Assembly (NCBI GenBank): GCA_037441565.1
Contig: JBBIRW010000007.1
Location: 43,297 to 107,296, forward strand
Length of the DNA stretch: 64,000 nt
Source of the DNA: Deltaproteobacteria bacterium
GTDB lineage: Bacteria > Desulfobacterota > JBBIRW01
Direction: 5' to 3'
Program-made: the position numbers and the translations under genes
Notes under the pieces: generated by a model
What the model was told of the DNA's origin: nothing
The model's database searches: none
Seen by the model: the letters and a program-made list of their open reading frames with translations, nothing else
Part shown: one piece after another, positions 8,442 to 56,370 of the stretch
Layout of the letters: each line of letters begins with the position of its first letter
How positions within the stretch are numbered: position 1 is the first letter of the stretch

Positions 8442-8473
8442 CTTCCAATCCCCTCAAAATTAATTATATAATA

Positions 8474-26909: not shown

Positions 26910-27334
26910 CAGGATTCTCCTTTATATCCTTTCAAATATCTATAATCCAGACTCAAAGGATCAGGTTCAGCATAGAGATACATTAACAGACCACCCATTA
27001 TCGCAAGATTTTTTAAAAACATGATTATCTGAAGTCTCTGAGAGAAGTCTGTATGGAAAATTATTGTTGTTGGTATTAAAAAGATCAGCAGCATTAAACT
27101 TCCCCATTTTGCCTTTATTCCAAGCAGAAGGGAAAGACCTCCGATTCCCTCGAGTAAAATTGCACCTATTAAGAAAAAACCAGGGTAAGGCATTCCATAC
27201 GCCCTCATATAGTTTATCGTCCCTGATGGGTCGATTATCTTTGTTATACATGAAATGATAAAGATAATCGAAATAAATACCCTTGAAAGTAACAAAACTA
27301 CACCCTTCATGAAAACCTCCTTTTCCAGCAGCAA
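26909..27334 (-). CDS. DoxX-family membrane protein
   Basis: 141 aa with four predicted TM helices; 1-nt stop/start overlap with the NDH-2 gene. Confidence 0.65.
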   Translation of the reverse strand: MLLEKEVFMKGVVLLLSRVFISIIFIISCITKIIDPSGTINYMRAYGMPYPGFFLIGAILLEGIGGLSLLLGIKAKWGSLMLLIFLIPTTIIFHTDFSQRLQIIMFLKNLAIMGGLLMYLYAEPDPLSLDYRYLKGYKGES

Positions 27335-27388
27335 CTCAATTTTTTATTATATGATACGATCCTCCTCAATTAAATAACCTCCTTGCCA

Positions 27389-27416
27389 GTGATTGATTCT
27401 GGGTGATTCAGTGATT
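27389..27416 (+). promoter_or_regulatory. three direct GTGATT repeats upstream of the sco-cox operon
   Basis: GTGATTgattctggGTGATTcaGTGATT ends about 10 nt before the SCO1 start at 27427, in the divergent region shared with the DoxX-NDH2-rubredoxin operon. Confidence 0.25.
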
Positions 27417-27426
27417 ATATTAATCT

Positions 27427-28236: not shown

Positions 28237-28238
28237 TT

Positions 28239-29858: not shown

Positions 29859-30484
29859 TTTTCATGATTAGTATTACTTCTTTCTCTGTTGAAAAACACA
29901 CTGATTATACTGGTTCAAAGATCGGTATGTGGTTATTTCTATTCACAGAAATGCTTCTTTTTGGGGGTCTCTTTCTCATTTATTCCACATACAGGGCAAA
30001 GTATCCCATCTCCTTCCATGTTGCAGCAAAAGATCTTAACATACAGATAGGTACGCTAAATACAATACTTCTTCTTACAAGCAGTCTCACAATGGCTATA
30101 TCGATATTATCAATAAAAAATGGAAGTAGAAGAGGGTCTGCTTCCTTTCTCATGATTACTATCATTTTCGGACTTTTATTCCTTTTCAACAAATACTTTG
30201 AATGGGGAGAAAAGATTGCGCACGGTATCTATCCGGGATCAGAAGCACTCTCCGTTATAGATTCATCCATTGTCCTTTTTTACAATCTATACTTTGTTAT
30301 GACAGGGCTTCATGCCTTACATGTCCTTGCGGGGATCTTCGTGCTTTTCATAATGTTTGTTTTACTCCTTAAGAAAAATATAAACAGGCATGATTTTGTC
30401 AAACTTGAAAATACAGGGCTATACTGGCATTTTGTAGATATAATCTGGATATACCTCTTTCCCCTTTTTTATCTGATAACATGA
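29855..30484 (+). CDS. ctaE: cytochrome c oxidase subunit III
   Basis: 209 aa polytopic protein with subunit-III C-terminal motif (LYWHFVDIIWIYLF); 4-nt overlap with subunit I. Confidence 0.8.
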   Translation: MIFMISITSFSVEKHTDYTGSKIGMWLFLFTEMLLFGGLFLIYSTYRAKYPISFHVAAKDLNIQIGTLNTILLLTSSLTMAISILSIKNGSRRGSASFLMITIIFGLLFLFNKYFEWGEKIAHGIYPGSEALSVIDSSIVLFYNLYFVMTGLHALHVLAGIFVLFIMFVLLLKKNINRHDFVKLENTGLYWHFVDIIWIYLFPLFYLIT

Positions 30485-30774
30485 GGTTTGCTATGCAAAA
30501 CAAGAGAAATGAAGCAGGTTTTTTGACATATCTTTTTGTGTGGATATCTCTCATTGTTCTCACTGCATTTACAGTTACAGTCGCGGCTCTTAATCTCGGA
30601 AAAATTGCTGTTCTCACAGCGCTATCAATTGCATCATTCAAATCGTTGATGGTTCTTAACTTCTTTATGCATCTGAAATATGAGGATCGTCTATTCCATT
30701 TCATGCTCCTTCTCTCTGTTATTACCCTTTCGATAATTATAGGATTCACATTTTTTGACATCTCTTTCAGATAG
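30481..30774 (+). CDS. cytochrome c oxidase subunit IV (bacterial small subunit)
   Basis: 97 aa, three TM helices; position between subunits III and II; 4-nt overlap. Confidence 0.6.
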   Translation: MRFAMQNKRNEAGFLTYLFVWISLIVLTAFTVTVAALNLGKIAVLTALSIASFKSLMVLNFFMHLKYEDRLFHFMLLLSVITLSIIIGFTFFDISFR

Positions 30775-30782
30775 GGTTAATT

Positions 30783-31391
30783 ATGGAAAATTTTGCAGAA
30801 AGAGTAGATAACACATTCTTCTACATAGCTGGTATCTCAGTTTTTCTTCTCTTTTCCATCACAGTTTTCATGATCTACTGTCTTATCAGGTTCAACAGAA
30901 GGAGAAATCCGATGCCCGCTGATATCTCGGAAAATCTCTACCTCGAGATAGCATGGACAATTATCCCGATAATCCTTGTACTGTCCATGTTCTATTATGG
31001 ATGGACAGGATACAGGGTTCTGGGTAAAATACCCGAAGGATCGATGGATGTAAATGTTACGGCACGCATGTGGTCATGGACATTCAGGTACGAAAATGGA
31101 AAAGAAAGCGACCAACTTTATGTGCCAGCTGGCAAGCCAGTAAAATTAACGATCACATCAATGGATGTAATCCACTCCCTATATATACCCGCCCTAAGAA
31201 TAAAACAGGATGCAGTCCCCGGTATGAAAACGCACCTCTGGTTTAAAGCAGACATAAAGGGAGAATACGATATATTATGTGCTGAGTACTGTGGTCTCAG
31301 GCACTCCTATATGCTATCAAAGCTTATTGTTATGCCTGAAGAGGATTTCGTAAAATGGTATGATGGCAGGGATATTAAAAAATTAAAATAG
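30783..31391 (+). CDS. ctaC: cytochrome c oxidase subunit II (CuA, no fused cytochrome c)
   Basis: 202 aa; two TM helices plus cupredoxin domain with CuA ligands (VIHSLYIP, CAEYCGLRHSYM). Confidence 0.85.
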   Translation: MENFAERVDNTFFYIAGISVFLLFSITVFMIYCLIRFNRRRNPMPADISENLYLEIAWTIIPIILVLSMFYYGWTGYRVLGKIPEGSMDVNVTARMWSWTFRYENGKESDQLYVPAGKPVKLTITSMDVIHSLYIPALRIKQDAVPGMKTHLWFKADIKGEYDILCAEYCGLRHSYMLSKLIVMPEEDFVKWYDGRDIKKLK

Positions 31392-31394
31392 GGA

Positions 31395-32705
31395 TTGAAT
31401 TTCGATCTGCTTTTAGAATATAAAATCCTAATGATGCAGGATTATCTCGCTGTTATCAAAGCTGAACATATAGAAACGCTTCGATATATTTCGACAGTTG
31501 CATTTGTTATCTTCTACCCCTTCATATCCATTATTCTCGGATATTTGATCCTCTCCTTCCTTTTCCTTCTCAGGGGGAGGGGAACCAATCACTTCTCATC
31601 CGAACTAACTTCATCCATAATACATACCATTACAAAGAGCAAGGGTCTTCTGTTTCTTGCAGGACTGCTTCCACCACTTACTGCATCCCTCGTTTTTATT
31701 GAAACAGGTCTTATGGAGAATAAGCATCTCGTTAATCTCTCATTACTCTCCCATATCCTTCTCTTCATTTCATTCATGTTTCTTTATCTTTATCGATCAA
31801 CAATAAACTTTATTCGCACAAAACCCGCAATCACACTCCTGTCATCTATCTTTTCAATCCTGACACTGCTTTTTTCCCTTTATATCCTCTCGTCTGTTCT
31901 TTCATCAGTATCAAACAGAGAAAAGGCTAATCTATTTTTGAATGCCATTGATCCGCTTATATCATGGAATGCCGTTGTAAGATACCTGAGGATTATTGTT
32001 CTTGCGCTTTCATTTGCTTTTTCGACCTTTATAGTTTTTTTTAAATATTTTTATAAAAGTAAAACAGTGGATGATCCTTCCCTCAGAAATGCCATAATCT
32101 ATTCCTCACTCGTATTGCTTATCCTTATACCTCCGCTTTCCCTATGGTATATCTATACCCTCCCTGAGCCTTCCCTATCACCTTTTATATTTCTGTTATC
32201 AATAATCTTAACGATTGCATCCTCTATCATTATATGGCTCCTTTACAGCTGCCTTGATGGAATAAAATCGAAATACAAATATAGCATACTCATCCTTTTC
32301 ATATTGCAGTTTATGTTTATTTCAGGTATGGAATATATCGAAAGAGAAACATCACATAGAGAAAATACCATGTTATTATTATCAAAAGCACAGGTTGTTA
32401 AAGAAGGGATAAGGACTGAAAAGAAAAAAGTTGAGATGGATGAGAAGGCAACCCTTGAAAAGGGGGAGAAGGTTTTCAAAACGGTTTGCTCAGCCTGTCA
32501 CAGCTTCACTCAAAGGGTTGTTGGTCCTCCTTTAAATGCTGTTATTCCATCTTACAGGAATAAGGTTGATGAGCTAAAAAACTTCATAAAGAATCCTGTG
32601 AAAAAAGATCCCTCCTATCCTCCAATGCCGAATCTGGGACTTCCAGATGATGAAATAGAGGCTGTCTCATTATATCTCCTGAAGGAGATAGGAGAGAAAA
32701 AGTAG
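31395..32705 (+). CDS. polytopic membrane protein with C-terminal monoheme cytochrome c domain
   Basis: 436 aa; about 8-10 TM helices, then a soluble C-terminus with CSACH heme-binding motif and PPMP (likely Met ligand). Start uncertain. Confidence 0.6.
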   Translation: MNFDLLLEYKILMMQDYLAVIKAEHIETLRYISTVAFVIFYPFISIILGYLILSFLFLLRGRGTNHFSSELTSSIIHTITKSKGLLFLAGLLPPLTASLVFIETGLMENKHLVNLSLLSHILLFISFMFLYLYRSTINFIRTKPAITLLSSIFSILTLLFSLYILSSVLSSVSNREKANLFLNAIDPLISWNAVVRYLRIIVLALSFAFSTFIVFFKYFYKSKTVDDPSLRNAIIYSSLVLLILIPPLSLWYIYTLPEPSLSPFIFLLSIILTIASSIIIWLLYSCLDGIKSKYKYSILILFILQFMFISGMEYIERETSHRENTMLLLSKAQVVKEGIRTEKKKVEMDEKATLEKGEKVFKTVCSACHSFTQRVVGPPLNAVIPSYRNKVDELKNFIKNPVKKDPSYPPMPNLGLPDDEIEAVSLYLLKEIGEKK

Positions 32706-40734: not shown

Positions 40735-42048
40735 CTAAACATCAAGAATAACACGCGCTGTCCATCCATTATTATCTTTCCTCACCTCAAGCATGTGCAG
40801 GGTCACTGCCTTCACATCAAGATGAAGTATATGTTTTTCCGGATCGATCCTCTCCCCTGCTGCCTTCATCCTCGCCAGCCAGTTATCACCCTTCCTTCCG
40901 ATTTTCACATTAAACTCTCCAAAGATCAGTTTTTCTGTATCTTTGAAAAAGATTATTTCCTGAAGAAGATTAAAAAGGAGAAGATCCAGTTCTTCAGCCT
41001 CAATCTCTATCAGCCTTCTTTCTTTAAGATCGATTGTGCCTGTTTCAAGTATCATGATATTTGTCGTTGCAAGCGCAGAGGAAATAAAAAGTTCCTCAAT
41101 CGTATCACCCTTTGCCTCAAATGCTACATCGGCTGTAACAAAATCTTCAAGAAATCTGTACTTAAATCTCAATGTCATGTTCTCTAACTGGGAAATAACC
41201 CGATCCTTTATCTCATAAGCTCGATCGCCAATAAATACAAGACGCGTTTCTTCCGATTCAAATTCTTCAAAATCCCATCGATCAGAGACATAATTGAACA
41301 GGTAGGAGCCATCGGGAAATTTTACAAATCCCTTTGCCCTGTATATCTTTCCAGAAAAATCATTTAGCATCTCTTCAAATCTTTCCCTCTGGATTGTCCC
41401 TTTTGTACAGAAAGTAAAGTAATCCATGCTATGTGAGTGATGAACAGCATTTGATAAATATCTTTCTACTCCCATCCCGGATAAAAGCTCTGTATCTATA
41501 TTGCAGAATGAAGTTCTGAAAAGGGTCGCCCTTTTGTTAATCTCTTTTACCTTCTCCTCAACCCCTAAGAGATCTTCTTCATCGACCAGGTCTATCTTGT
41601 TTATCAGAATTACATCGGCTGATTCAATCTGTATCCTCCCTGTATAGCCTGTTTCCGGAAATCTAATCATGGCATCAGCATCAACAACAGTAACTACTGT
41701 ATCAAGCTTCACCATTGTTAGTGCCTCACCTATAATCTCTATGAGTGAATCTGGCTCTGCAAGACCTGTGGTTTCAACAAAAATTATATCAGGCCTTATT
41801 TCATTTACTATCTCCTCAATTGCCGCCTCAAATTCTCCCGATAGTGAACAACATACGCATCCTCCGGCAAGTTCAGCCATCCTTATATTTTTCCCCTCAA
41901 GAACCTTGCCATCTATGGGTATCTCTCCAAATTCGTTTACCACAATGGCGATCTTTTTCCTTGAATCCCTTATGATATTCCTCAGAAGGGTTGTCTTACC
42001 ACTGCCGAGATATCCTGTTATCAAAATAAGAGGTGTTTTTGTGATCAT
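40735..42048 (-). CDS. COG0523/CobW-family GTPase (putative metallochaperone) with extended C-terminus
   Basis: 437 aa; P-loop GYLGSGKTT, GCVCC metal-binding motif, CobW_C-like region plus extra C-terminal sequence. Confidence 0.8.
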   Translation of the reverse strand: MITKTPLILITGYLGSGKTTLLRNIIRDSRKKIAIVVNEFGEIPIDGKVLEGKNIRMAELAGGCVCCSLSGEFEAAIEEIVNEIRPDIIFVETTGLAEPDSLIEIIGEALTMVKLDTVVTVVDADAMIRFPETGYTGRIQIESADVILINKIDLVDEEDLLGVEEKVKEINKRATLFRTSFCNIDTELLSGMGVERYLSNAVHHSHSMDYFTFCTKGTIQRERFEEMLNDFSGKIYRAKGFVKFPDGSYLFNYVSDRWDFEEFESEETRLVFIGDRAYEIKDRVISQLENMTLRFKYRFLEDFVTADVAFEAKGDTIEELFISSALATTNIMILETGTIDLKERRLIEIEAEELDLLLFNLLQEIIFFKDTEKLIFGEFNVKIGRKGDNWLARMKAAGERIDPEKHILHLDVKAVTLHMLEVRKDNNGWTARVILDV

Positions 42049-42108
42049 ATCTATAAAATGGACCTTAAAACCATAAGATCCTGGGCTCTCTTCCTTTTCC
42101 TTTTGTAT

Positions 42109-43611
42109 TTAACCCTTAATGTTTCCAACCGGAATGAATCTCACAACCTTTTTTGAAAGTCCTGCAAGCTCTGTGGTATCGACTACTTCATCTATGTTTT
42201 TGTAAGCAGCACCAGCCTCCTCAGCAAGACCAGAAAAGGACGCCGTTCTTACATAAATACCCGTCTCCTCCATCTTCCTCTGGAGAGCCTTTCCATCAAA
42301 TAGTTTCCTTGCCTTCGTTCTGCTCATTGTCCTTCCACTACCATGTGCTGTTGAAAAGAAACTCTTTGTTCCCGAACCTATCCCCGCAAGTAGATAGCTC
42401 CCCGTCTCCATACTTCCGCCAATAATAACAGGCTGACCTGTTTCCTTATATATACCAGGCAATCCTTCCATTCCAGGAGCAAAGGCTCGTGTAGCTCCCT
42501 TTCTGTGAACAATAAGCTGCATCTCCTTTCCATTAACAAAATGTTTTTCAAGCTTTGCTGTATTGTGTGAAACATCGTAAACCATTTGCATCCCGAGCTT
42601 CCTTGCATCCTCCTTGAATACCTTTTCAAAAACCTCTCTTATTCTATGGGTTATTACCTGTCTGTTTGCAAATGACATATTTATCCCGCACTTCATGGCG
42701 GCGAAATAATCCTGACCTTCAGGGGAATCAAAGGGTGCACAGGCAAGTTCCCTATCCCTCACACTAATTCCATATTTCTTCTCCATAACCTTAAGAAAAA
42801 TTTGAAGATAATCAGTTGCAACCTGATGCCCGAATCCACGACTACCACAGTGAAACATCACTACAACCTGATCAGGTATTGATATACCGAAGATCTTTGC
42901 CAGTCTTTCATCGTATATGTTTTCCGGTTTCGCTATCTGAATCTCAAGATAGTGATTGCCTGATCCAAGGGTTCCAATTTGATTTATGCCCCTTTCAACT
43001 GCCTTCTCACTGATCTTTGATGGATCCGCACCCTGAATACACCCCCCTTCTTCTGTCCTTTCAAGATCCTCCTCCCAGCCAAAACCCTTTCTTACACACC
43101 ACCTTGCCCCTTCAGAAAGGACCTCCATGAATTCATTTCTATTAAGTTTCAGAAATCCGGTGCTTCCCACACCACATGGAACCCTCTCAAATAATAGATC
43201 AACAATCTCCTTGATCCTTGGTTTAATATCATTAAATGTCAGGGAAGTAAGGACAAGCCTCATTCCACAGTTTATATCAAAACCAATACCACCCGGTGAT
43301 ATTACACCTACCTTGGCATCCATTGCAGCAACACCACCGATGGGAAATCCATAGCCGGAATGTGCATCTGGCATGCAGAGGGCGTAATTTACAATACCCG
43401 GAAGTGTTGCTACATTTGTTATCTGTTCAAAGACCTGCCAGTCCATCTCGCTTATCAGCTTCTCTGTTCCATATATCCTGGCTGGAGCTCGCATCCCATC
43501 CTTGAACTCCTCAGGGATCTCATAGATAAAATCGCTTATCCTTCTGAATGGTATCGGATGTGCCATAAAGACCTCCCTCAGTAAATAACTTAAACCCTCA
43601 TATGTGGACAT
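42109..43611 (-). CDS. rtcB: RNA-splicing ligase RtcB
   Basis: 500 aa ORF; conserved RtcB segments (CMPDAHSGYGFPIGGV, HCGSRGFGHQ); start may be the internal ATG near 43566. Confidence 0.85.
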   Translation of the reverse strand: MSTYEGLSYLLREVFMAHPIPFRRISDFIYEIPEEFKDGMRAPARIYGTEKLISEMDWQVFEQITNVATLPGIVNYALCMPDAHSGYGFPIGGVAAMDAKVGVISPGGIGFDINCGMRLVLTSLTFNDIKPRIKEIVDLLFERVPCGVGSTGFLKLNRNEFMEVLSEGARWCVRKGFGWEEDLERTEEGGCIQGADPSKISEKAVERGINQIGTLGSGNHYLEIQIAKPENIYDERLAKIFGISIPDQVVVMFHCGSRGFGHQVATDYLQIFLKVMEKKYGISVRDRELACAPFDSPEGQDYFAAMKCGINMSFANRQVITHRIREVFEKVFKEDARKLGMQMVYDVSHNTAKLEKHFVNGKEMQLIVHRKGATRAFAPGMEGLPGIYKETGQPVIIGGSMETGSYLLAGIGSGTKSFFSTAHGSGRTMSRTKARKLFDGKALQRKMEETGIYVRTASFSGLAEEAGAAYKNIDEVVDTTELAGLSKKVVRFIPVGNIKG

Positions 43612-44692
43612 TCAAGCATCCCTATTTTCTGGTATATTAGTGAGTATGATAGTGATAGATGGAAGCTATGGTGAAGGTGGAGGGCAGATCCTGAGAACCG
43701 CACTCAGTATCTCCTGTATAACAGGAAAACCCTTCAGAATATTTAACATAAGGAAGGGGAGGGAAAAACCAGGCCTCATGCCTCAGCATCTCGCCTCCAT
43801 AATGGCAGCAAGGGAGATCTCTGATGCAGATATTGAAGGAGCTTTCATAGGCTCAACAGAACTGATCTTTTCACCCCGAAGGATAAAGGCAGGAGAGTAC
43901 TCATTTAATATAGGTACCGCTGGATCAACAATACTGCTTCTTCAGACCCTCATACCTCCTCTTATCTTTGCTGGAGATCTATCAAGGATCTTAATAAAGG
44001 GCGGAACGCATGTGCCTTTCAGTCCCATTTACGATTATACGGAGAAAGTGTTTGCAGAGTTCTTAAACATGTTAGGAATCAGGATCAGTTTAAGGATCAG
44101 ATCATACGGCTTCTACCCTAAAGGAGGTGGTTCAATAGAGGCTGAAATATATCCTGTAGAGTCGATCTTACCAATAGAGATTCTCGAGAAGGGGAGGTTA
44201 AAAAGGATCGGAGGCTGTTCATCCGTTGCCAATCTCCCCATATCCATTGCAGAGAGACAGCGCACATCCGCTATTAAATATATGAAAGAAAGACTCGGTG
44301 ATGAAGTTCCCATTCATCTTGAAACTATGAATGTTCCAACCCCATCTGAGGGAACATTTCTATTCCTCAAGTGCGAATTTGATCTTTCTATTGCAGGTTT
44401 CTCTTCCCTTGGAAGGAGGGGAAAGAGTGCGGAAAAGGTCGGTGAGGAAGCTGCCTCAGGGCTGATATCATTTCTCAGAACTGATGGTGCAATTGATCCC
44501 CATCTTGCTGACCAGATAGTTCTCTATCTCTCAATGGCCTCAGCTCCATCCCGATTCACTGTATCCTCCATAACGGATCACCTGTTAACGAATCTCTACA
44601 CAATAAGGCATTTCTTTAAAATTAGATACTCCGTTAATGGAGAAAAGGGAGGAGTTGGCCTGATTGAAATAAATCCTGTTCTTCAAAATTAA
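43604..44692 (+). CDS. rtcA: RNA 3'-terminal phosphate cyclase RtcA
   Basis: 362 aa ORF; RtcA N-terminal motif ([19 protein letters not shown]); start may be the internal ATG near 43646. Confidence 0.8.
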
Positions 44693-45582
44693 AGATCGAT
44701 CAGCATGGAGAGGAATATCAATGAGAGATAAACTATCGAATATCTGAAAAGCGTCCTGTCAATTTTCTTTCCTGACAGTTTCATAAAAAAGATAACAAAA
44801 TATATTACATTGAGAAGAATAGAAACCCAGAGGTAAAATGATCCGCAAAATTCTAAAACGAATGGAAGTATGCTTGCCATTGAAAGAAGAACAAGATAGA
44901 TTAACATTAATTCTGATGTCTTCCTTTCGGATATAGCAGGCATTACAGGTATTCCTGCTTTTATATAATCATCTCTGTAGAGACTTGCAAATGACCAGAA
45001 GTGAAGAGGTTGCCAGATCAGGATAATCAGGAATAAAACAAACGCCTCAGCATCAATACCGTTCTTAACCGCAGCGCATCCTATAAGCGGTGGAAGGGCT
45101 CCCGCAATACCGCCAATCTCAGTAGCATGCGGAGTTTTTCTTTTTAGAAATCTTGTATAGAGAAAATAGTAGATGAATGCACCGATCATGGATAGAAATG
45201 CTGACAGTAAATTCACAAAAATGGATAGAAAAATGAATGATAGAATTATGAGAAGCATGCCGAATTTTGTTGCACTCCTTATATCAATTCTTCCGAGAGG
45301 TATTGGCCTGTTTTTTGTCCTTTCCATAACTGCATCTATATCTGCATCATAGCAGTTGTTTAATATTGTTGAGCCGGAGCAGCAAAGTGCAAGACCGGTT
45401 AATGTCCAGAACAGGAGCGATGTATTTATCGCCCCCTTTGATGCAATCCATATACTGGAAAAGGCTGTAATGAGCATAAGGAGTGTTATGCCAGGACCTG
45501 TTACTGAAATATAGTCCCGGAAAACACCCCTTCCAATGCTTTGAGAAACAATAACCCTACTTCTTAGCCCTTCCGTATTCAT
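44689..45582 (-). CDS. ctaB: protoheme IX farnesyltransferase (heme O synthase, UbiA family)
   Basis: UbiA-type polytopic protein with Asp-rich motif (NCYDADIDAVMERTKNRP); start set at internal ATG 45582 to limit overlap with coxI. Confidence 0.8.
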   Translation of the reverse strand: MNTEGLRSRVIVSQSIGRGVFRDYISVTGPGITLLMLITAFSSIWIASKGAINTSLLFWTLTGLALCCSGSTILNNCYDADIDAVMERTKNRPIPLGRIDIRSATKFGMLLIILSFIFLSIFVNLLSAFLSMIGAFIYYFLYTRFLKRKTPHATEIGGIAGALPPLIGCAAVKNGIDAEAFVLFLIILIWQPLHFWSFASLYRDDYIKAGIPVMPAISERKTSELMLIYLVLLSMASILPFVLEFCGSFYLWVSILLNVIYFVIFFMKLSGKKIDRTLFRYSIVYLSLIFLSMLIDL

Positions 45583-47134
45583 AAGGTCCTGATGTAACAA
45601 CAGGTATCCTTTCGAAATTATAACATGGCGGTGGGGAAGGAATCGTCCATTCAAGCGATAGTGCATTCCATGGATTATCAGACGCCTTTTCCCCCACAAA
45701 CGCTGAACGAACAACATTGAAAACGGAAAGCAGGAAACCAGCTATCAGTATATACCCTCCGATAACTGTTACCCTGAATAGCACAGTAAACTCTGGAGGA
45801 TAGCTCCAGTACCTCCTCGGCATGCCCATGAGTCCCAGCTGGAAAAGGGGTATGAAAGCGAAAAGGGAACCGATCATGATCAGCCAGAATGAAAGCCTTG
45901 CCATGCGCTCATTATACATGCGCCCTGTGAATTTTGGAAACCAGAAATAAATACCCGCAAAAGCCACAGATGTCATGGCAAGTGATAGAACCATATGGAA
46001 ATGGGCAACAACCCAGTATGTATCATGAACATGGAGGTCAATTGCAATAAGCCCATTTCCAACGCCCGTAACACCGCCGATAACAAAAAGACTTATAAAA
46101 CCTATCACATAGAGCATAGGCGCCCTGAATTCTATTGCTCCCCTATGCATCGTTCCAAGCCAGTTGAATACCTTTATACCCGTTGGAACAGCAATGAGTA
46201 TTGTAAGCATCGATTGCATGATCCTTGCCCAATCCTCTACACCTTTTGTGAATAGATGATGAATCCATACGGAAAACCCGAGGATGGTAATTGACATAAT
46301 TGCAATGACCATACTCCTGTATCCAAATATCTTTTTCCTTGAAAAGGTTGATACAATTTCCGATACAATTCCAAATGCAGGAAGCGCAACAACATAAACA
46401 GCAGGGTGTCCGTAAAACCAGAATAGATGCTGATAAAGCATCGGAGATCCACCCATTGAAGGATTATAGAAATTTGTTCCCAAGTATCGATCAAAAAGAA
46501 GGAGTGTTACAGCTCCCGCAAGAACAGGTATTCCAAAAAGCTGAATTATAAAAGCACTGAGCATCCCCCATATAGCGAGATTGAGTCTTCCCCATGTCAT
46601 ACCTGGTGCCCTCATACAGATTATAGTTGTTATAAAGTTCACAGCAGATGCGAGGGCAGATCCACCGAGAAGATGAACGGAGAAAACATAAAGCGAAGTA
46701 TTCGCATCCGTGATTATTGAATACGGTGGATAACCTGTCCAGCCGATATCGATCCTTCCAGGTGTTACGAGTGCAAGAACTGCCATAACCGTTGCACCTG
46801 CAAAAAGCCAGTAGCTCAGGGCATTGAGCCTTGGAAATGCAACATCCTTTGCACCTATCATAAGCGGGATAAGGAGATTGGCAAAGAAACCTGTAAAAAC
46901 TGGAATCATCCACCATAAAATCATTGCTGCTCCATGAATTGTGAAGAATACATTGTATGTTTTTGCACCTATTATATCCATTCCTGGGGACCACTGTTCT
47001 GCCTTAATAAAGATGGCAAGGATAAGTCCGAGCACAAAAGCAGTAAGACTTGTTATAAGATAGAGAACTGCAATCCTTTTATGGTCTGTTGTAAATATCC
47101 ATTCCTTTATACTAAAGCCCTTTTTTTCTGACAT
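45557..47134 (-). CDS. ctaD: cytochrome c oxidase subunit I (second copy)
   Basis: 525 aa; GHPAVYVVALP and WIHHLF motifs; 12 TM. Confidence 0.9.
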   Translation of the reverse strand: MSEKKGFSIKEWIFTTDHKRIAVLYLITSLTAFVLGLILAIFIKAEQWSPGMDIIGAKTYNVFFTIHGAAMILWWMIPVFTGFFANLLIPLMIGAKDVAFPRLNALSYWLFAGATVMAVLALVTPGRIDIGWTGYPPYSIITDANTSLYVFSVHLLGGSALASAVNFITTIICMRAPGMTWGRLNLAIWGMLSAFIIQLFGIPVLAGAVTLLLFDRYLGTNFYNPSMGGSPMLYQHLFWFYGHPAVYVVALPAFGIVSEIVSTFSRKKIFGYRSMVIAIMSITILGFSVWIHHLFTKGVEDWARIMQSMLTILIAVPTGIKVFNWLGTMHRGAIEFRAPMLYVIGFISLFVIGGVTGVGNGLIAIDLHVHDTYWVVAHFHMVLSLAMTSVAFAGIYFWFPKFTGRMYNERMARLSFWLIMIGSLFAFIPLFQLGLMGMPRRYWSYPPEFTVLFRVTVIGGYILIAGFLLSVFNVVRSAFVGEKASDNPWNALSLEWTIPSPPPCYNFERIPVVTSGPYEYGRAKK

Positions 47135-47150: not shown

Positions 47151-48926
47151 TTATTTCAGCGATTTAAGATATGCGATTATGGAATATATCTGTCTTTCGG
47201 AAAGCCTGTATGGTGGCATTGCTGCAGGATAACCTTTAACAATCTTCTCTGAGGGATAAAGTATTGAGTGTTCTATATACTCCTCATCAACCTTCATGCT
47301 TCCACCATCCTCGAACCTTGTTTCCCTCCCAAATATTCCTTTAAATGTTGGACCTGTTGATTCCTCCCCCGTAACTGTGTGACATCCCAGACATCCCAGG
47401 ATCTCAACAAGCCTCCTTCCCTCATTGATATCGGGTAAAGCTTCTCCCTCACTCTTCGCCTTTGATATCCATGCATTGAAATCCTCCCTCTTCATTGCTA
47501 TCACCTTTGCAATCATCATAGAATGACCATTTCCGCAGAACTCCGTGCAGAATGCCCTGTATAATCCTGGCTTTTCCGCATTAAACCACAGATACGTTAT
47601 CCTTCCCGGAATTGCTTCCTCCTGAATATGGAAATCTGGAAGGAAAAATCCATGAAGCACATCCCTGCTTGTAAGGCTGATCCTTACAGGAATTCCGGCA
47701 GGAATAACAATCTCATTTACCCCTTTTATTCCTTCAGGGTAGGTAACATTCCATCCCCACATGAACCCCTCGACGCTGATCTCATATGCATTGGATGGAA
47801 CACCTCTGAATTTCTGATAAATACTCCATGTCTGGATCCCTAAGAAAATAACAATCACAAGAGGAATAACAGTCCATATAATTTCAACAAGTGAATTCCC
47901 CTCAATGTAATCCCCTTCTTCCCTTCCTCTTCCCTTTCTGTAACGGATGCAAATATAAATTAACGGAATCGTTACAACTAACCAGACGGCGAACATAAGT
48001 ATAAGATAGATACCGAAGTGCTGATCCCACAGCCTCGATGGATTGCTTGCATCAGATGCGAGTGCATCTTTTCCGGAAATGAAAGTTATGAAAGGGATCA
48101 GTAGCAGTAACTCTGATCTCCTTTTCTTTACATAAATAACAATGGAGAGCAACCCGGTAATAACCCCCATAAAAATTCCAGCTGCAATAAAAAGAAGCGG
48201 AATGTTTATCACATATGTTCGTGATCCTGGATCGTATTTATAGCATGCAAATGTAATCATGCTCGCTATCGAAACACTTCCAGAAATCCCCTTCATTGAT
48301 TCAAGTATTGCTAACCGAACGTTGAATGGATCAGGTTTTGATCCATAAAGATATCTTGTTATCCTTCCTTCGGGAGAGATAAATATGTAAACAGATGGAT
48401 GTACAAACATTCCATCTTGAATTGAATAGAAGAACCGATATCCCGTGCTCTCGACCAGCTTATTTATATTTTCATCTGTCGTTGTTGCAAATTTCCATTG
48501 ATTAAATACTTCTGATCTCTTTTTATTAAAAACTCTTTCATAGAATTCTAATGCTTTTGATGGTGTATCCTTGCTGTTAAAGCTCAAAATAAGAACATGG
48601 TAATCTTTTCCATTTTTTAAATCCCTTATCTCATTCAATGCATCAAAAAGTCCCTCAACAAGAAGCGGGCAGATATGTGGACAATCATAATAAACAAGCG
48701 TAAGGATCAGGACTTTGCCCTTGAATTGCGAAATAGAAAATTCTTTCCTGCTTTTATCCGTAAAAGTTATTTCTGCAACGGATCTTCCGAGATGTTTTTC
48801 TTCTTCTATCTTTAAAATCGCCGGATTGAAATCCGAGGTTGATATAGTAGGAATCTTTGCCTCTAAATCAGCATTAAATGAAAGTATAAAGAAGATCAAA
48901 ATAACCAATCTTCCAATCGATACCAT
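47151..48926 (-). CDS. SCO1/SenC domain fused to cytochrome c oxidase subunit II with C-terminal cytochrome c domain
   Basis: 591-aa single frame: signal peptide, SCO1-like thioredoxin domain (CPHICP, YDPGSRTYV + TM), two CoxII TM helices, cupredoxin domain with CuA site (FCTEFCGNGHSMM), C-terminal heme c motif CLGCH. Confidence 0.8.
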   Translation of the reverse strand: MVSIGRLVILIFFILSFNADLEAKIPTISTSDFNPAILKIEEEKHLGRSVAEITFTDKSRKEFSISQFKGKVLILTLVYYDCPHICPLLVEGLFDALNEIRDLKNGKDYHVLILSFNSKDTPSKALEFYERVFNKKRSEVFNQWKFATTTDENINKLVESTGYRFFYSIQDGMFVHPSVYIFISPEGRITRYLYGSKPDPFNVRLAILESMKGISGSVSIASMITFACYKYDPGSRTYVINIPLLFIAAGIFMGVITGLLSIVIYVKKRRSELLLLIPFITFISGKDALASDASNPSRLWDQHFGIYLILMFAVWLVVTIPLIYICIRYRKGRGREEGDYIEGNSLVEIIWTVIPLVIVIFLGIQTWSIYQKFRGVPSNAYEISVEGFMWGWNVTYPEGIKGVNEIVIPAGIPVRISLTSRDVLHGFFLPDFHIQEEAIPGRITYLWFNAEKPGLYRAFCTEFCGNGHSMMIAKVIAMKREDFNAWISKAKSEGEALPDINEGRRLVEILGCLGCHTVTGEESTGPTFKGIFGRETRFEDGGSMKVDEEYIEHSILYPSEKIVKGYPAAMPPYRLSERQIYSIIAYLKSLK

Positions 48927-48939: not shown

Positions 48940-49683
48940 TCAAGCTTTTAGAAAGCTATACGGGAGGATATAAACCAATGAAAGAATGAGAAGCCATAGA
49001 CCATCAACAAAATGCCAGTAGTATCCGCAAATCCTTACAACACTTCTACGAATTCCTCCAGCTCCTTTTCTAATTGAAAGAAGCAGAATATAAAGCTGAA
49101 ACAAAACACCCACAAGAACATGGGAGCCGTGAAGACCTGTTATCAGATAAAAATATGTTCCGTAGGAGTTACTTGTAATAGTTAATCCTTCAGATATAAG
49201 CCTGCTCCATTCCCTTGCCTGTCCCATAAGAAAAAGAAGGCCAAGCACAATTGTCAAGGAAAGCCATTGCTTCATGTATTTCCTTTCAGCCATCTGAATT
49301 GTTACACTCGAGGAAATAAGAATGACTGTCAGGATCATTGCAAAACCAAGTGGTGGAATGTCTGCTGGTATTCCTGGAGATATCCATTCCCCTTTGGGAA
49401 GCATGCTGTATAAGTATGCGCTTAAAACTCCGCTAAAGAGTGCGATCTCAGATAGGATAAAAACCACCATTGCCGTAGTGCTGATCCTTTCTTCTGAATC
49501 CGATTCGAATACCTCGGATACCCATCCTGTGAGGCTTATGATTGTGCCCGCAGCACCCAGACAGGCTGTAAAAAGGCCTCCGACAGGAATCTTCCACTGA
49601 AATGAGATCATAAAACCCATCATGATGAGGAATGATGAAAAAGCTGTAAAAAATGGCCAGATGCTTACAAATTGAGTATGCAT
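48940..49683 (-). CDS. ctaE: cytochrome c oxidase subunit III (second copy)
   Basis: 247 aa polytopic protein; subunit-III C-terminal pattern (GLHGSHVLVGV, YYWHFVDGLWLL). Confidence 0.75.
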   Translation of the reverse strand: MHTQFVSIWPFFTAFSSFLIMMGFMISFQWKIPVGGLFTACLGAAGTIISLTGWVSEVFESDSEERISTTAMVVFILSEIALFSGVLSAYLYSMLPKGEWISPGIPADIPPLGFAMILTVILISSSVTIQMAERKYMKQWLSLTIVLGLLFLMGQAREWSRLISEGLTITSNSYGTYFYLITGLHGSHVLVGVLFQLYILLLSIRKGAGGIRRSVVRICGYYWHFVDGLWLLILSLVYILPYSFLKA

Positions 49684-49736
49684 CCTTCACCCCCATAAAA
49701 TGGGATAATATTTGTCCAGTTTAAACACAAAAATTT

Positions 49737-50138
49737 TTATATTCTATTAGAAAGCATTTTGAAGTTTATCCTGCTAAGTCTTCCTTCCATTTCCTTCCTC
49801 ATTTCAACCCATACTGGATGAACAGAACAGCTGTTGCTAAGAGTGCACAATCTTTTGTTGATAGCACACCTGTTAAATGCAACGGGGCCATCTATTGCCT
49901 GGATTACATCCAGAAGATTTATCTCCTCCAGCCTTCTTGCCAGCTGAAAACCCCCCTTTATGCCACGGTATGATCTCACCAGCCCTACCCTTGTAAGTTT
50001 TTGCAGAATCTTTGAAAGAAAATCCCTGGGGATCCTTTTCGCCCTTGCAATCTCCTTCGCCATTGTTATCTTTCCCTCATTCTCAGCAAGGTATAACACA
50101 CATCTGATAGCGTAATCTGCCTGCCTTGTAATCTGCAT
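49737..50138 (-). CDS. Rrf2-family transcriptional regulator (IscR/NsrR-like, three conserved Cys)
   Basis: wHTH N-terminus (ADYAIRCVLYLA) and Cys triad (CAINKRLCTLSNSC); start moved to ATG 50138 because the track start at 50150 is a TTG. Confidence 0.8.
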   Translation of the reverse strand: MQITRQADYAIRCVLYLAENEGKITMAKEIARAKRIPRDFLSKILQKLTRVGLVRSYRGIKGGFQLARRLEEINLLDVIQAIDGPVAFNRCAINKRLCTLSNSCSVHPVWVEMRKEMEGRLSRINFKMLSNRI

Positions 50139-50325
50139 AATACAGGACAAAATTTATCCTCTTTTGATCAATTATGTCAAGAAAATTATTTTTTAAGGAT
50201 GCCTCCTAATTAACCGGGTAATTTCTGTAGGTTAAAAATAAAGGGATGGGCTAATTTTTTTTACCCCCTGGAAGTAAAAATTTTATATAATAAAAGATGG
50301 CAGATGGAAAGGAAAGGATCCTTCC

Positions 50326-50886
50326 ATGGTAGAGATAAGATTTCATGGGAGAGGGGGACAGGGTGCGGTCACCAGCGCGGAACTACTTGCACTTGCTGCC
50401 ATTGAAGAAGGAAAATTTGCACAGGCCATACCAAGTTTTGGTCCTGAAAGGAGAGGCGCTCCTGTTGCTGCATATGTAAGGATAAGCAGAAACAGGATAA
50501 AATATAGATTCGGGATTTACAATCCCGATATAGTCGTTGTTCTTGATCCAAGCCTTTTAGGTCTTCCTATTGTCAAATCAGGCCTTAAAGAGGATGGTGT
50601 CCTCGTTGTCAACACTCATGAATCGGAAGATGAGGTCAGGGAAAGTATTAAGTATGATGGCACGCTTGCCATTGTTGATGCCTCTTCTATTGCAATAAAG
50701 ACCCTTGGAATCCCTGTCACCAATACCTGTATGCTTGGGGCGCTTCTGAAAGCCTCAGAAGTTGTTTCCCTTGAATCCTTTTTTAACCCTATGAAACAGA
50801 AGTTCAAAGGGGCAGCGGAGAAAAATCTCGATGCAATGAAACAGTCCTATAATGAAACAATAATTTTTAAAAAGAGGCTCTTATGA
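50326..50886 (+). CDS. porG: pyruvate/2-oxoacid:ferredoxin oxidoreductase gamma subunit
   Basis: 186 aa; typical gamma N-terminus (IRFHGRGGQGAVTSAELLA). Confidence 0.85.
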   Translation: MVEIRFHGRGGQGAVTSAELLALAAIEEGKFAQAIPSFGPERRGAPVAAYVRISRNRIKYRFGIYNPDIVVVLDPSLLGLPIVKSGLKEDGVLVVNTHESEDEVRESIKYDGTLAIVDASSIAIKTLGIPVTNTCMLGALLKASEVVSLESFFNPMKQKFKGAAEKNLDAMKQSYNETIIFKKRLL

Positions 50887-53307: not shown

Positions 53308-53781
53308 ATGATCAAGCTTACAAATATCAGGGGAAAGGTTGACAGAATTATTGACATTTATAACGGCGACAGGGGTCAGATCGTTTCAATCCTTCAGGAT
53401 ATTCAGGAAGAATATCTTTATCTTCCCAGAAAAGCACTTGAGTATATAAGTGAAAGATTAAACATTCCACTTTCTCAGCTATACAGTGTGGCAACTTTTT
53501 ATCGGGCAATGAGGCTAAAGCCCCGGGGAAGATATCTCATACGTGTTTGTCTCGGAACAGCATGTCATATAAGGGGTGGTCCATTAATACTGGAGAGAAT
53601 CGAGAGGGAGCTCGGCATTAAGGCTGGAGATACAAGCAGTGATATGAAATTTACCGTTGAAACAGTAAACTGTGTTGGAGCCTGTGCCCTTGGTCCTATA
53701 GTAATCTGCAATGACGAACTACGCTCTCATATGACAACAGTAAAGGCATTATCACTTATAAAAAAGCTCAAGAAGGATTGA
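53308..53781 (+). CDS. NuoE/HoxE-like [2Fe-2S] thioredoxin-like subunit
   Basis: 157 aa; two Cys pairs (CLGTACH, CVGACALGP) in the NuoE arrangement. Confidence 0.8.
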   Translation: MIKLTNIRGKVDRIIDIYNGDRGQIVSILQDIQEEYLYLPRKALEYISERLNIPLSQLYSVATFYRAMRLKPRGRYLIRVCLGTACHIRGGPLILERIERELGIKAGDTSSDMKFTVETVNCVGACALGPIVICNDELRSHMTTVKALSLIKKLKKD

Positions 53782-53784
53782 AAT

Positions 53785-55635
53785 ATGGAAAAGATAATAA
53801 AAACTCCTGATGATCTCGAAAGGAGAAGGAAAAAACTCCTGGAAGAGAGGCAACCTTCCAGAAAATGGATTGCAGTGCCCTGCGGAACATGCGGACTTGC
53901 AAATAGATCTGACCAGATACTTGAGGGATTGAAAACCTATATCAAAAAGGCGAAAGTTGATGTTGAAGTTAAGAAAACCGGATGTCAGGGGCTCTGCGAA
54001 TCACTTCCAAAGATAATCATCCATCCGGAAAAGATATTCTATCAGCATGTAAAACCATCTGATATCAAGAATATTGTTGAAGAAACATTGAAGAAAAACT
54101 CCTTGGTGGAGGAGCTCCTGTTCAGGGATCCTGGAACGGGTAATACCATCGTAAAATTTGACGATATCCCTATTATGAAAAAGCAACACAGGCTCCTCCT
54201 ATCCTATCACGAATGGATAGATCCTGAAGATATAGATGATTATATCGCATTATCCGGATATACATCCCTTGCAAAAGTTCTCTTTACCATGAAACCGGAT
54301 GAAGTTATCGAGATAATAAAGAAATCAGGATTGCGCGGAAGAGGAGGAGCAGGATTTCCAACAGGGATCAAATGGGAATCATGCAGAAAGGCGACGGGCG
54401 ACATAAAATATGTAATCTGTAACGCTGATGAAGGTGATCCCGGTGCATACATGGACAGGGCATTACTCGAGGGAAATCCACATCTTGTTATAGAAGGGAT
54501 GATCATAGGAGCCTATGCAATAGGTGCACAGCAAGGCTATGTTTATGTAAGGTGGGAATATCCTCTGGCTTTGAAGAATCTTATTAAAGCTATAAATAGC
54601 GCCAGGGAATACGGGCTTCTTGGTAAAAACATACTTGGAAGCGGTTTTGATTTTGATATAGGAGTAAACAGAGGTGGAGGTGCATTTGTTTGTGGTGAAT
54701 CAACTGCACTTATGGCATCAATGGAAGGAAAGCCAGGAGAGCCAAGGGCAAAATATATTCATACCGTTGAAAAGGGGCTCTACAATAGACCAACAACACT
54801 CAACAATGTTGAGACATGGGCGAATGTCCCGATAATAATAGAAAGGGGTCTTGAATACTACACCTCAATCGGCAATGAAAATAATAAGGGAACAAAGATC
54901 TTTTCGCTTGCCGGCAAAGTCAACTATACAGGTCTTATCGAGGTCCCCCTTGGAATAAAACTGAGAGATATCATATTTGATATTGGCGGTGGAATAAAGG
55001 AAAATAGAAAATTTAAGGCAGTTCAGACAGGAGGCCCTCTCGGCGGTATCCTTGGAGAGAAGCATCTCGATCTTCCTGTTGATTTTGACAGTTTAAGCAA
55101 GGTTGGTTCAATGATGGGAAGCGGAGGAATGATTGTAATGGATGAAACAAACTGTATGGTTGATGTCGCAAAGTACTTCCTTAGATTCCTTGAGGAGGAA
55201 TCATGTGGAAAGTGCGTTCCTTGCAGGGAAGGAGTCAGGAGAATGAGAGAAGTTCTTGATGAAATCTCATCAGGGCGAGGGAACGATGCATATATTCAGC
55301 TTCTTGAGGAGATGGGAAGTGCAATCATGGATGGAAGTCTCTGTGCTCTGGGCGGTTCTGCACCCAATCCTGTTATGACAACAATAAAATATTTTCCCGA
55401 AGAATACCATTCACATATTTACAACAGAAAATGTCCTGCAGGTGTTTGCAAAGATCTCATTACATACTCTATCGATCCCGATAAATGCAACGGATGTGCT
55501 GCCTGCATTCCCGTATGTCCTGAAAAATGTATAACTGGGGTGAAGAACAAACCCCATATCCTTGATCCTGTTAACTGCATAAAGTGTGGATCCTGTTATG
55601 ATGTATGTAGATATGATGCTGTTCTCAGGCATTAG
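53785..55635 (+). CDS. NuoF/HoxF-like NAD(P)H-binding FMN flavoprotein with extra FeS domains
   Basis: 616 aa; N-terminal thioredoxin-like Cys domain, FMN/NADH motif GRGGAGFPTGIKWE, cluster motif ESCGKCVPCREG, C-terminal 2x[4Fe-4S] ferredoxin (CNGCAACIPVCP, CIKCGSCYDVC). Confidence 0.85.
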   Translation: MEKIIKTPDDLERRRKKLLEERQPSRKWIAVPCGTCGLANRSDQILEGLKTYIKKAKVDVEVKKTGCQGLCESLPKIIIHPEKIFYQHVKPSDIKNIVEETLKKNSLVEELLFRDPGTGNTIVKFDDIPIMKKQHRLLLSYHEWIDPEDIDDYIALSGYTSLAKVLFTMKPDEVIEIIKKSGLRGRGGAGFPTGIKWESCRKATGDIKYVICNADEGDPGAYMDRALLEGNPHLVIEGMIIGAYAIGAQQGYVYVRWEYPLALKNLIKAINSAREYGLLGKNILGSGFDFDIGVNRGGGAFVCGESTALMASMEGKPGEPRAKYIHTVEKGLYNRPTTLNNVETWANVPIIIERGLEYYTSIGNENNKGTKIFSLAGKVNYTGLIEVPLGIKLRDIIFDIGGGIKENRKFKAVQTGGPLGGILGEKHLDLPVDFDSLSKVGSMMGSGGMIVMDETNCMVDVAKYFLRFLEEESCGKCVPCREGVRRMREVLDEISSGRGNDAYIQLLEEMGSAIMDGSLCALGGSAPNPVMTTIKYFPEEYHSHIYNRKCPAGVCKDLITYSIDPDKCNGCAACIPVCPEKCITGVKNKPHILDPVNCIKCGSCYDVCRYDAVLRH

Positions 55636-55650
55636 GAGAAGGAGATTGGC

Positions 55651-56370
55651 ATGTCTGATGGAAAAACAGTAACTTTAACAATAGATGGAAAGACGATAAG
55701 ATCAAGGGAAGGAATGTATGTTCTTGAAGTTGCAAGGGAGAACAATATTCAAATTCCAACACTTTGCTATCATGAATCATTAGCACCATCCGGCTCATGC
55801 AGACTCTGTGTTGTTGAGGCAAAACGCGATAATTCATCAAGGATTGTTGCATCATGTCTTTATCCTGTTTCAGATGGTCTCGAAATATTAACAAATAGTG
55901 AAAGAGTTCTGGCCGTAAGAAAGCTTGTTGTAGAACTCCTTTATGCAAGATGCCCGAATGTTCCGTTTGTAAAAAATCTTGCAAATGAGTTTGGAATAAA
56001 GGAACCAAGGTTTGCAAAGGAGAATGATGACTGCATACTGTGCGGCCTCTGCGTTCGCGCATGCGATGAAATCGTGGGTGTTAAGGCTATCTCTATGGTA
56101 AGCAGAGGGGCAAAAAAAGAGGTAAACACACCCTTTGGAACCGCATCGGATGTATGCATAGGTTGTGCAACGTGCGCATATATATGTCCTACAAAGAGAA
56201 TAAAGGTTGAGGAGAAGGATGGATACAGGAAGATCTGGTATAAGAAATTTAAAATTGTCAATTGCAGGAAGTGCGGATTTCCCATAGGTCCGAAAGAACA
56301 GCTTTCTTACTTTATTAAAATTGCCAAACTACCTGATAATTTTTACGACCTTTGTCCGAGCTGCAGGTGA
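55651..56370 (+). CDS. HoxU / NuoG-N-terminal-like FeS subunit ([2Fe-2S] + [4Fe-4S])
   Basis: 239 aa; plant-type 2Fe-2S pattern (CYH...CRLC...C), then CILCGLCVRAC and CIGCATCAYICP; no molybdopterin domain. Confidence 0.75.
   Translation: MSDGKTVTLTIDGKTIRSREGMYVLEVARENNIQIPTLCYHESLAPSGSCRLCVVEAKRDNSSRIVASCLYPVSDGLEILTNSERVLAVRKLVVELLYARCPNVPFVKNLANEFGIKEPRFAKENDDCILCGLCVRACDEIVGVKAISMVSRGAKKEVNTPFGTASDVCIGCATCAYICPTKRIKVEEKDGYRKIWYKKFKIVNCRKCGFPIGPKEQLSYFIKIAKLPDNFYDLCPSCR

Follow-up and report, generated by a model that had tools for sequence, protein, structure and literature searches.

Introduction

The characterized subfamilies of Rrf2 regulators comprise HypR, IscR, CymR, RirA, SaiR, RsrR, NsrR and SifR (PMC12774639). 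None of these is dedicated to terminal oxidases, and the sensing of O2 and induction of membrane O2 reductases in strict anaerobes are poorly understood. Here, we describe an rrf2 gene (49737–50138) that heads a string of A-type cytochrome oxidase (cox) genes in a 64-kb window of contig JBBIRW010000007.1, the window being the whole stretch of 64,000 nt that was analysed.

Our full-text literature searches found no characterized Rrf2 regulator of terminal oxidases, only remarks on gene context. CtaR of Acidithiobacillus ferrooxidans, an uncharacterized Rrf2 gene, is clustered with aa3 biogenesis genes, and a homologue in T. denitrificans adjoins cbb3 biogenesis genes (PMC2754497). In Geobacter sulfurreducens, the Rrf2 gene GSU1639 lies beside cydAB, is co-regulated with cydAB, and has been read as an iron or iron–sulfur (Fe-S) regulator (PMC7726332). 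For IscR, the type-1 site is recognized by the [2Fe-2S] form alone, and repression is lifted by oxidative stress or by a shortage of iron (PMC3899308).

Our favoured reading, to which we assign a probability of roughly 0.6, is that the window protein is an IscR-derived, cluster-dependent Fe-S repressor that acts at two palindromes, boxes 1 and 2, and switches on the oxidase genes of an anaerobe upon exposure to O2.

The rrf2-cox locus

The elements of the locus are as follows.

49737..50138, minus strand: rrf2, a 133-aa Rrf2-family regulator with D8, C13, C91, C98, C104 and H107
50141..50163, no strand: box 1, a predicted palindromic operator (matrix score, conserved position)
49699..49721, no strand: box 2, an operator-like palindrome (second-best match in the window, conserved position)
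50151..50180, minus strand: predicted sigma-70-type rrf2 promoter (consensus scan)
48940..49683, minus strand: coxIII (COX3), the first predicted target gene (profile match)
47151..48926, minus strand: Sco1/SenC-CoxII-cytochrome c fusion (profile matches)
45557..47134, minus strand: coxI, A-type heme-copper oxidase subunit I (profile matches)
44689..45582, minus strand: ctaB (heme o synthase), the final gene of the rrf2-cox string

The initial annotation had described a three-Cys Rrf2 gene that heads the strand carrying coxIII, sco-coxII, coxI and ctaB, the second oxidase operon of the window, and that diverges from porG over an AT-rich spacer of 187 bp. This description was borne out throughout. 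The protein matches Pfam Rrf2 PF02082 (E = 5.2e-36; 124.1 bits, cut-off 30) and TIGR00738 rrf2_super (121.3 bits, cut-off 73.3), and C91, C98 and C104 are present. Gene order and profile matches agree for the cox string, and ‘second’ is correct because an earlier A-type oxidase cluster lies at 27427–32705. The rrf2-porG spacer (50139–50325) measures 187 bp and 31% GC, against 41% in the window as a whole; porG, on the plus strand, begins at 50326, with porD, porA and porB after it.

The rrf2 reading frame runs from an ATG at 50138 to a TAA stop at 49737–49739. An alternative in-frame TTG at 50150 is not kept in relative L003, and MQITR or MEITR forms the N-terminus of 29/29 aligned homologues; on these grounds the ATG is taken as the start. 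The genes of the string are closely spaced, with 53 bp between rrf2 and coxIII, 13 bp between coxIII and the fusion, 16 bp between the fusion and coxI, and a 26-bp overlap of coxI and ctaB; beyond ctaB lies rtcA, convergent on the plus strand. A scan of the minus strand from rrf2 to coxIII found no intrinsic terminator, and an Rfam scan of 49500–50500 found no RNA family. The fusion gene (47151–48926) is an observation in its own right: its 591-aa product carries the Sco1/SenC copper chaperone N-terminal of CoxII and a cytochrome c domain at the C-terminus, an arrangement that is complete in six related loci (L001, L003, L008, L030, L059 and L089), whereas L046 has it as two separate ORFs.

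Two conserved palindromes on the cox side

A search for Rrf2-type palindromes in 50139–50325 and upstream of 49683 found conserved operators, boxes 1 and 2, on the cox side only. The two boxes have in common a palindrome of 17–23 bp, AGGAyWAAnTTWrTCCT. The 17-bp core of box 1 (50144–50160; AGGATAAATTTTGTCCT on the minus strand) ends 5 nt before the rrf2 ATG, and that of box 2 (49702–49718; TGGACAAATATTATCCC on the minus strand) lies within the 53-bp spacer between the rrf2 stop codon and the coxIII ribosome-binding site. Box 1 scored 30.3 bits and box 2 17.2 bits with a first matrix. An independent matrix, built from 22 sites with none from the window or its close relatives, ranked box 1 first in the 64-kb window (27.4 bits) and box 2 second (19.0 bits), the next match being 44136–44158 at 12.0 bits. 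With the same matrix, the best scores in 200 random 64-kb sequences had a mean of 12.0, a 95th percentile of 16.5 and a maximum of 20.2. The match at 44136–44158, which falls inside rtcA, had reached 18.1 bits with the first matrix; it is absent in L003 and was rejected as chance.

The position of box 1 (−17 to −22 from the ATG) is found again in at least 16 loci. Box 2 is kept at the same place in L001, L003, L008 and L089, and the layout of two boxes recurs in these four loci and in L116. In L003, the weak half-site of box 2 is on the opposite arm, a swap expected of selection on dyad symmetry. Compared with the E. coli IscR type-1 consensus ATASYYGACTRWWWYAGTCRRSTAT, box 1 agrees at 17/25 positions, and the ‘CT’ consensus variant of the palindrome at 19/25. 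These values compare with a background mean of 9.4, and 18 is reached by fewer than 1.3e-4 of the 25-mers in the window.

The only sigma-70-like promoter predicted on the rrf2 strand consists of a −35 element TTGACA (50175–50180), an 18-nt spacer and a −10 element TAAATT (50151–50156) that falls inside box 1, and the whole block is invariant in L001 and L003. With an alternative promoter, TTGATC-16-TGTCCT, the mRNA would be leaderless. Whichever promoter is used, box 1 overlies the −10 and the region of the start, as expected for the site of a repressor. For the cox genes themselves, the motif TATTAT within box 2 could serve as the −10 of a putative internal promoter. Just upstream of box 2, a block that spans the rrf2 stop codon (49726–49741, TAAAAATTTTT) is invariant in the window, L001 and L003, and might be a −35 or UP region of such a promoter. 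A further dyad overlapping the −35 of rrf2, TGA-N9-TCA (TTGACATAATTGATCAA), which resembles the IRO box of RirA, was seen by eye and set aside, since a motif with just six defined bases is not informative enough.

The predicted operator across related loci

Gene neighbourhoods were compared in a scan of one genome per species, which contributed 80 further loci; the 83 non-redundant loci comprise 72 in-clade loci and 11 Chloroflexi outgroup loci, cited below by number where needed. A count of dyads in the 83 regions upstream of the rrf2 genes found AGGA-N9-TCCT in 18/83, against 0.15 expected, the commonest dyad in any shuffle reaching at most nine. Longer nested dyads led to the core AGGATAAAnTTTATCCT. 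When a 23-nt palindromic matrix was run over 870 kb with a threshold of at least 15 bits, 53 of the 58 matches were intergenic, and some 50 of the intergenic ones immediately precede operons with rrf2 and/or oxidase genes of the cox, cbb3, cydAB or bd-like kinds.

A distance of 0–2 nt between the end of the 23-mer and the rrf2 ATG is seen in many loci. Where rrf2 follows cydAB, the box is found upstream of cydA instead (nine loci: L006, L014, L016, L023, L025, L039, L049, L062 and L063). Stand-alone rrf2 genes (L027, L042, L066, L057 and L041) are still boxed, with the palindrome abutting the ATG, which points to autoregulation.

A reverse search of a metagenome collection with the exact 21-mer pattern ACAGGAYWAANTTWRTCCTGT returned 51 stretches, of which 50 are unique. 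A hidden Markov model (HMM) detected an Rrf2 gene abutting ten of the 50, and one more adjoins a ccoN fragment. One stretch, L089, combines a 61% identical Rrf2, box 1, box 2 and a coxIII-sco/coxII-coxI-ctaB-hemerythrin string with no por genes; further Rrf2-adjacent matches accompany cydAB, cbb3 or hemerythrin. Identical 21-bp boxes also stand on two high-GC metagenome contigs, upstream of a TIGR02944 regulator (133.9 bits, above the cut-off) followed by sufB and sufC (L097, 366–386), and upstream of genes for an Rrf2 protein, an IscS/NifS-like desulfurase and IscA (L132, 886–906). Cross-talk between regulators of Fe-S biogenesis and oxidase-linked regulators, via a common operator type, is thus possible.

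Most metagenome matches without an Rrf2 gene were rejected as regulon members and treated as noise, as they look like terminator hairpins in AT-rich contigs. Many of the metagenome stretches L090–L137, flanked by an A-run and a T-run, have the look of a bidirectional intrinsic terminator (for example L107, L109, L112, L125 and L129), a caution for motif-only searches.

Linkage to O2 reductases

An O2 reductase is encoded on the same strand within 4 kb of rrf2 in 59/72 in-clade loci and in 0/11 Chloroflexi outgroup loci, neighbours having been identified in tblastn searches with reference proteins, supplemented by Pfam and NCBIfam spot checks. Such linkage fits an O2- or redox-responsive control of oxidases. 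The reductases found beside rrf2 are of four kinds: cbb3 (ccoN-ccoO/P) in 27 loci, cydAB in 21, a bd-like CydA-cytochrome c protein in eight, and A-type cox in seven. Genes for rubrerythrin, AhpC or hemerythrin often lead these operons, and a FixI/CcoI-type copper ATPase is sometimes encoded close by. In a neighbour-joining tree the context types are interleaved. The Chloroflexi outgroup has A13 in place of C13 and a variable residue 107, and lacks both the box and these neighbours. None of the 72 in-clade loci has isc or suf beside rrf2, and neither hmp, nor nor hcp occurs among the annotated neighbours of the 83 loci. Two single metagenome-assembled genomes each carry two paralogues of the clade (L017 and L066; L075 and L077).

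One recurrent neighbour deserves separate mention. In seven loci (L009, at 6463–9037, L021, L024, L027, L030, L045 and L047) a boxed gene pair is co-operonic with rrf2; it encodes a 436–445-aa protein that combines a weak resemblance to cytochrome bd subunit I with a cytochrome c domain, and a partner of about 404 aa without a Pfam match. The pair may be an uncharacterized bd-like O2 reductase.

Conserved candidate ligand residues and type of the regulator

The 133-aa protein has Cys residues at 13, 91, 98 and 104, and the signature C91-x6-C98-x5-C104-x2-H107. In alignments with reference sequences, C91, C98 and C104 line up with the cluster Cys of E. coli IscR and of the E. coli and Streptomyces coelicolor NsrR proteins, H107 with the His ligand H107 of IscR (motif C-x2-H-x2-W), and D8 with the Asp ligand of NsrR. 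D8, C91, C98, C104 and H107 are invariant, and C13 almost so, in 30 aligned orthologues of 53–92% identity, all from Thermodesulfovibrionia/Nitrospirota metagenome bins and Dissulfurispira thermophila, and the same five residues are nearly invariant across the 72 in-clade loci. Judged from these residues, the protein probably carries an Fe-S cluster.

The AlphaFold (AF2) model (pLDDT 85.7) has its helices and strands in the order expected for Rrf2, with an N-terminal winged helix-turn-helix and a long C-terminal dimerization helix. Foldseek matches with E ≤ 0.001 (ranks 1–37) are exclusively Rrf2-family structures, led by CymR, RsrR, IscR and NsrR with TM-scores of 0.72–0.82; the modelled fold does not discriminate between these four types. 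A PDB search with the C-terminal 73 residues, intended to align the Cys loop to that of IscR, gave nothing useful and left the IscR chains unscored.

As to whether the protein is of the IscR, NsrR, RsrR or CymR type, a question posed by the initial annotation, the ligand motif, the operator and the HMM ranking lean towards IscR and the SUF regulator, but none of the curated subfamily cut-offs examined was passed. The SUF regulator model TIGR02944 was the best-scoring and the nearest miss (95.5 bits, cut-off 110.65), ahead of RirA (NF008886; 86.6 bits, cut-off 193), IscR (TIGR02010; 79.5 bits, cut-off 207.55), NsrR (NF008240; 57.4 bits, cut-off 182) and CymR (NF047409; 54.3 bits, cut-off 195).

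Proposed mechanism

These data are consistent with a model in which a dimeric winged-helix Rrf2 regulator, from an uncharacterized clade related to IscR and the SUF regulators, would hold an Fe-S cluster on C91, C98 and C104 with H107, D8 or C13 as the fourth ligand. Each of these three candidates for the fourth position is conserved, a pattern compatible with more than one type of cluster. Under anoxia, the cluster-bound form would occupy the two palindromes of 17–23 bp, box 1 at the −10 and start of its own promoter and box 2 before coxIII, and would so repress rrf2-coxIII-sco/coxII-coxI-ctaB. Destruction or oxidation of the cluster by O2 or reactive oxygen species, or a supply of Fe-S that falls short of demand, would take the protein off these IscR-type-1-like sites and allow the oxidase to be made. 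The predicted outcome is inducible O2 scavenging in an anaerobe, together with negative autoregulation. The presence of four O2 reductase kinds and of peroxide and O2 defence genes in the neighbourhoods points to O2, rather than nitric oxide (NO) or iron, as the likely cue.

Several observations weigh against this model. Box 1 has an imperfect right half-site (TGTCCT), and box 2 departs from the idealized core at four positions. Five in-clade loci (L015, L034, L055, L061 and L069) have neither box nor oxidase, and no box of at least 6 bits lies upstream of the first oxidase cluster of the window (27334–27427), which implies that this cluster is regulated differently. About 20/50 metagenome matches, in AT-rich contigs, combine a hairpin with an A-run and a T-run and look like terminators, so the palindrome by itself is not diagnostic. 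The boxes before the SUF and ISC regulators of L097 and L132 mean that the box is not specific to the clade, and that another Rrf2 paralogue could occupy it. As a signal, O2 is not separable in silico from iron, NO, reactive oxygen species or a demand for Fe-S. Finally, the steps that lead from the motif to binding of the boxes by the window protein, repression, cluster type, signal and transcription start are ones that we infer.

Alternative explanations

Two alternatives survive best, although we consider both unlikely. The first is that the protein is a general Fe-S homeostasis regulator of the IscR or SUF type, with its main isc, suf or nif targets elsewhere and the cox genes merely adjacent. 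The C..C..C-x2-H-x2-W ligand motif is IscR-like, the top NCBIfam equivalog is the SUF regulator TIGR02944 (95.5 bits), the box resembles the IscR type-1 site, and the identical box stands before the suf operon of L097 and the isc operon of L132. However, the protein falls below the curated cut-offs (95.5 < 110.65 for TIGR02944; 79.5 < 207.55 for IscR), isc or suf adjacency is found in 0/72 in-clade loci against 59/72 for an O2 reductase, the boxes mark the starts of oxidase operons, and the two clade paralogues in single metagenome-assembled genomes (L017/L066 and L075/L077) also speak against this reading. A dual role in Fe-S homeostasis and oxidase control would still be compatible with this evidence.

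The second, no less improbable, is an NsrR-like NO sensor that de-represses NO-tolerant respiration. D8 is invariant along with the three Cys, and bd and cbb3 oxidases are linked with NO tolerance. Against this, the NsrR model gives 57.4 bits where 182 are required, the annotated neighbours of the 83 loci include no hmp, nor or hcp, H107 is IscR-like where NsrR has K or R, and peroxide and O2 defence genes are co-operonic. The predicted targets also include an NO-sensitive oxidase, A-type cox.

We regard as quite unlikely a third possibility, that the palindrome is the site of another factor, such as a different Rrf2 paralogue or a regulator of the PerR/Fur type that responds to peroxide or iron, and that rrf2 is just a member of the regulon. 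Rubrerythrin and AhpC, classical PerR targets, are encoded in the same operons, the box is common to other Rrf2 subfamilies, and Fur has been reported to control Geobacter GSU1639, the Rrf2 gene beside cydAB (PMC7726332). The box nevertheless accompanies rrf2 itself, abutting its start codon even where rrf2 stands alone, its width of 23–25 bp and GACTA-N3-TAGTC core match Rrf2 sites of the IscR type-1 kind, and the outgroup that lacks the oxidase context also lacks the box.

Least likely is a bidirectional redox switch that co-regulates the oxidase and the O2-sensitive POR operon from the 187-bp spacer: the divergent layout and AT-rich shared spacer are kept in L001–L005, but the por-proximal 160 bp are without a box, box 1 is distant from the por promoter motif, and POR adjacency is confined to the closest relatives, as set out below.

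The POR operon and other features of the window

One further feature delimits the system on the por side.

50164..50325, no strand: por-proximal part of the spacer, with no Rrf2 box and a conserved TATAAT near 50287–50292; the boundary of the system

The initial annotation had proposed a redox switch between the oxidase and the POR operon. Its cox half is supported by the conserved boxes and by the O2 reductase beside rrf2 in 59/72 loci, but its POR half is not. No Rrf2 box of at least 6 bits was found in 50164–50325, and the conserved por −10-like TATAAT (near 50287–50292) is about 125 bp from box 1. The whole por and rrf2-cox layout is kept in the closest relatives, L001 (92% Rrf2 identity) and L003–L005 (74%). 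Among the 83 non-redundant loci, POR adjacency is restricted to L001 and L003 (2/83); L089 and L008 keep rrf2-cox without an adjacent POR. Because there is no por box, the TATAAT is some 125 bp away and POR is not a conserved neighbour, the placement of the regulator between oxidase and POR is a coincidence of gene order within one small lineage. The POR operon is a neighbour and does not appear to be a target, and the tempting idea that it is under the same regulator is corrected here as unsupported.

Two observations concern the por side in its own right. A por-proximal inverted repeat at 50230–50266 (GGTTAAAAATAA / TTTTTTTTACCC) is distinct from the Rrf2 box and could belong to por regulation; L001 keeps it in part, and L003 weakly. 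Directly after porGDAB, the genes at 53308–56370 (plus strand) encode NuoE-like (2Fe-2S thioredoxin-like), NuoF-like (Complex1_51K) and Fer2/Fer4 proteins in an order kept in L001 and L003, and may form a POR-coupled NAD(P)H:ferredoxin module.

Two further regions lie on the other side of the cox string. Adjoining ctaB at 40735–44692 is an RNA-repair cluster of rtcA (plus strand), rtcB (minus strand) and a gene for a 437-aa CobW GTPase-archease fusion, the domain calls being taken from the precomputed Pfam matches of L001. The synteny is kept in L001; L003 has a shorter CobW-family gene (295 aa), with no archease match recorded. An O2-related island at 24280–32705 encodes ferritin/rubrerythrin-like proteins, hemerythrin, NDH-2 and DoxX, and then the first A-type oxidase cluster, which consists of Sco, COX1, COX3, COX2 and a membrane protein of 436 aa that carries a cytochrome c domain at its C-terminus. 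The latter protein (31395–32705) showed no significant similarity to the bd-like CydA-cytochrome c proteins of the related loci.

Implications for O2 sensing in anaerobes

The mechanism proposed for the window protein is conventional for the Rrf2 family, and the interest lies in the linkage to all O2 reductase classes and in the defined operator. We would extend it tentatively, with less confidence than we place in the model for the single locus: an IscR-derived Fe-S sensor may have become a dedicated O2 switch in anaerobic Nitrospirota (Thermodesulfovibrionia) and scattered other phyla, controlling A-type cox, cbb3, cytochrome bd and bd-like oxidases together with rubrerythrin, peroxiredoxin and hemerythrin genes, and retaining the ancestral operator of the IscR type-1 kind. 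If so, this would be an undescribed functional class of Rrf2 regulator in which Fe-S homeostasis and O2 scavenging are wired by one common DNA code, and a candidate answer to how oxidases are induced in strict anaerobes without FNR/Arc-type systems. A regulator-operator pair with coordinates and a clade-wide predicted regulon makes O2 sensing in these anaerobes directly testable, and the cultured Dissulfurispira thermophila, which has a box upstream of its cydAB-rrf2 genes (L006), is an organism in which to test the prediction.

Comparison with known Rrf2 regulators

CtaR and GSU1639 are like the window gene in lying beside oxidase genes, and oxidase or iron control has been hypothesized for them (PMC2754497, PMC7726332). 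They differ in that their operator is undescribed and the proposed signal is iron, in a comparison made by description only.

The top PDB sequence match of the window protein (E = 1.4e-12) is RsrR, the [2Fe-2S] redox sensor of Streptomyces venezuelae, which is autoregulated, as is predicted here. The cluster ligands of RsrR are Glu8, His12, Cys90 and Cys110. In an alignment to 6hsd, E8 and H12 are replaced by D8 and R12 of the window protein, and the similarity extends over residues 3–95 only; the counterpart of C110 is a residue other than Cys.

NsrR, a [4Fe-4S] NO sensor and repressor of a small stress regulon, has in common with the window protein three Cys and Asp8, the fourth cluster ligand in the published structure of S. 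coelicolor NsrR. The two differ in their low identity (20–24%), in the H107 of the window protein and in the absence of NO-detoxification genes from the annotated neighbourhoods. The SUF regulator TIGR02944 (Xanthomonas-type IscR) has a member, in L097, with the identical 21-bp box upstream of rrf2-sufB-sufC; the window protein differs in scoring under the cut-off of this model and in its context of oxidases rather than suf.

The likeness to E. coli IscR extends from protein to predicted operator. Both adopt the Rrf2 fold and combine three Cys with a His in the arrangement C..C..C-x2-H-x2-W; both would bind a palindrome of about 25 bp with a GACTA-N3-TAGTC-like core that overlaps their own promoter, with autoregulation predicted for the window protein; and the expected logic is the same, the holo form repressing and O2 or oxidants relieving repression. 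The differences are an identity of 29%, a first Cys spacing of x6 as opposed to x5 in IscR, conserved D8 and C13 where IscR has R8 and A13, and S42 in place of IscR E43. In the 72 in-clade loci, genes of the window type are never beside isc or suf, but mostly beside those for O2 reductases. The window protein is thus an uncharacterized member of a well-known kind of regulator, with a specific predicted regulon and an operator that is now defined.

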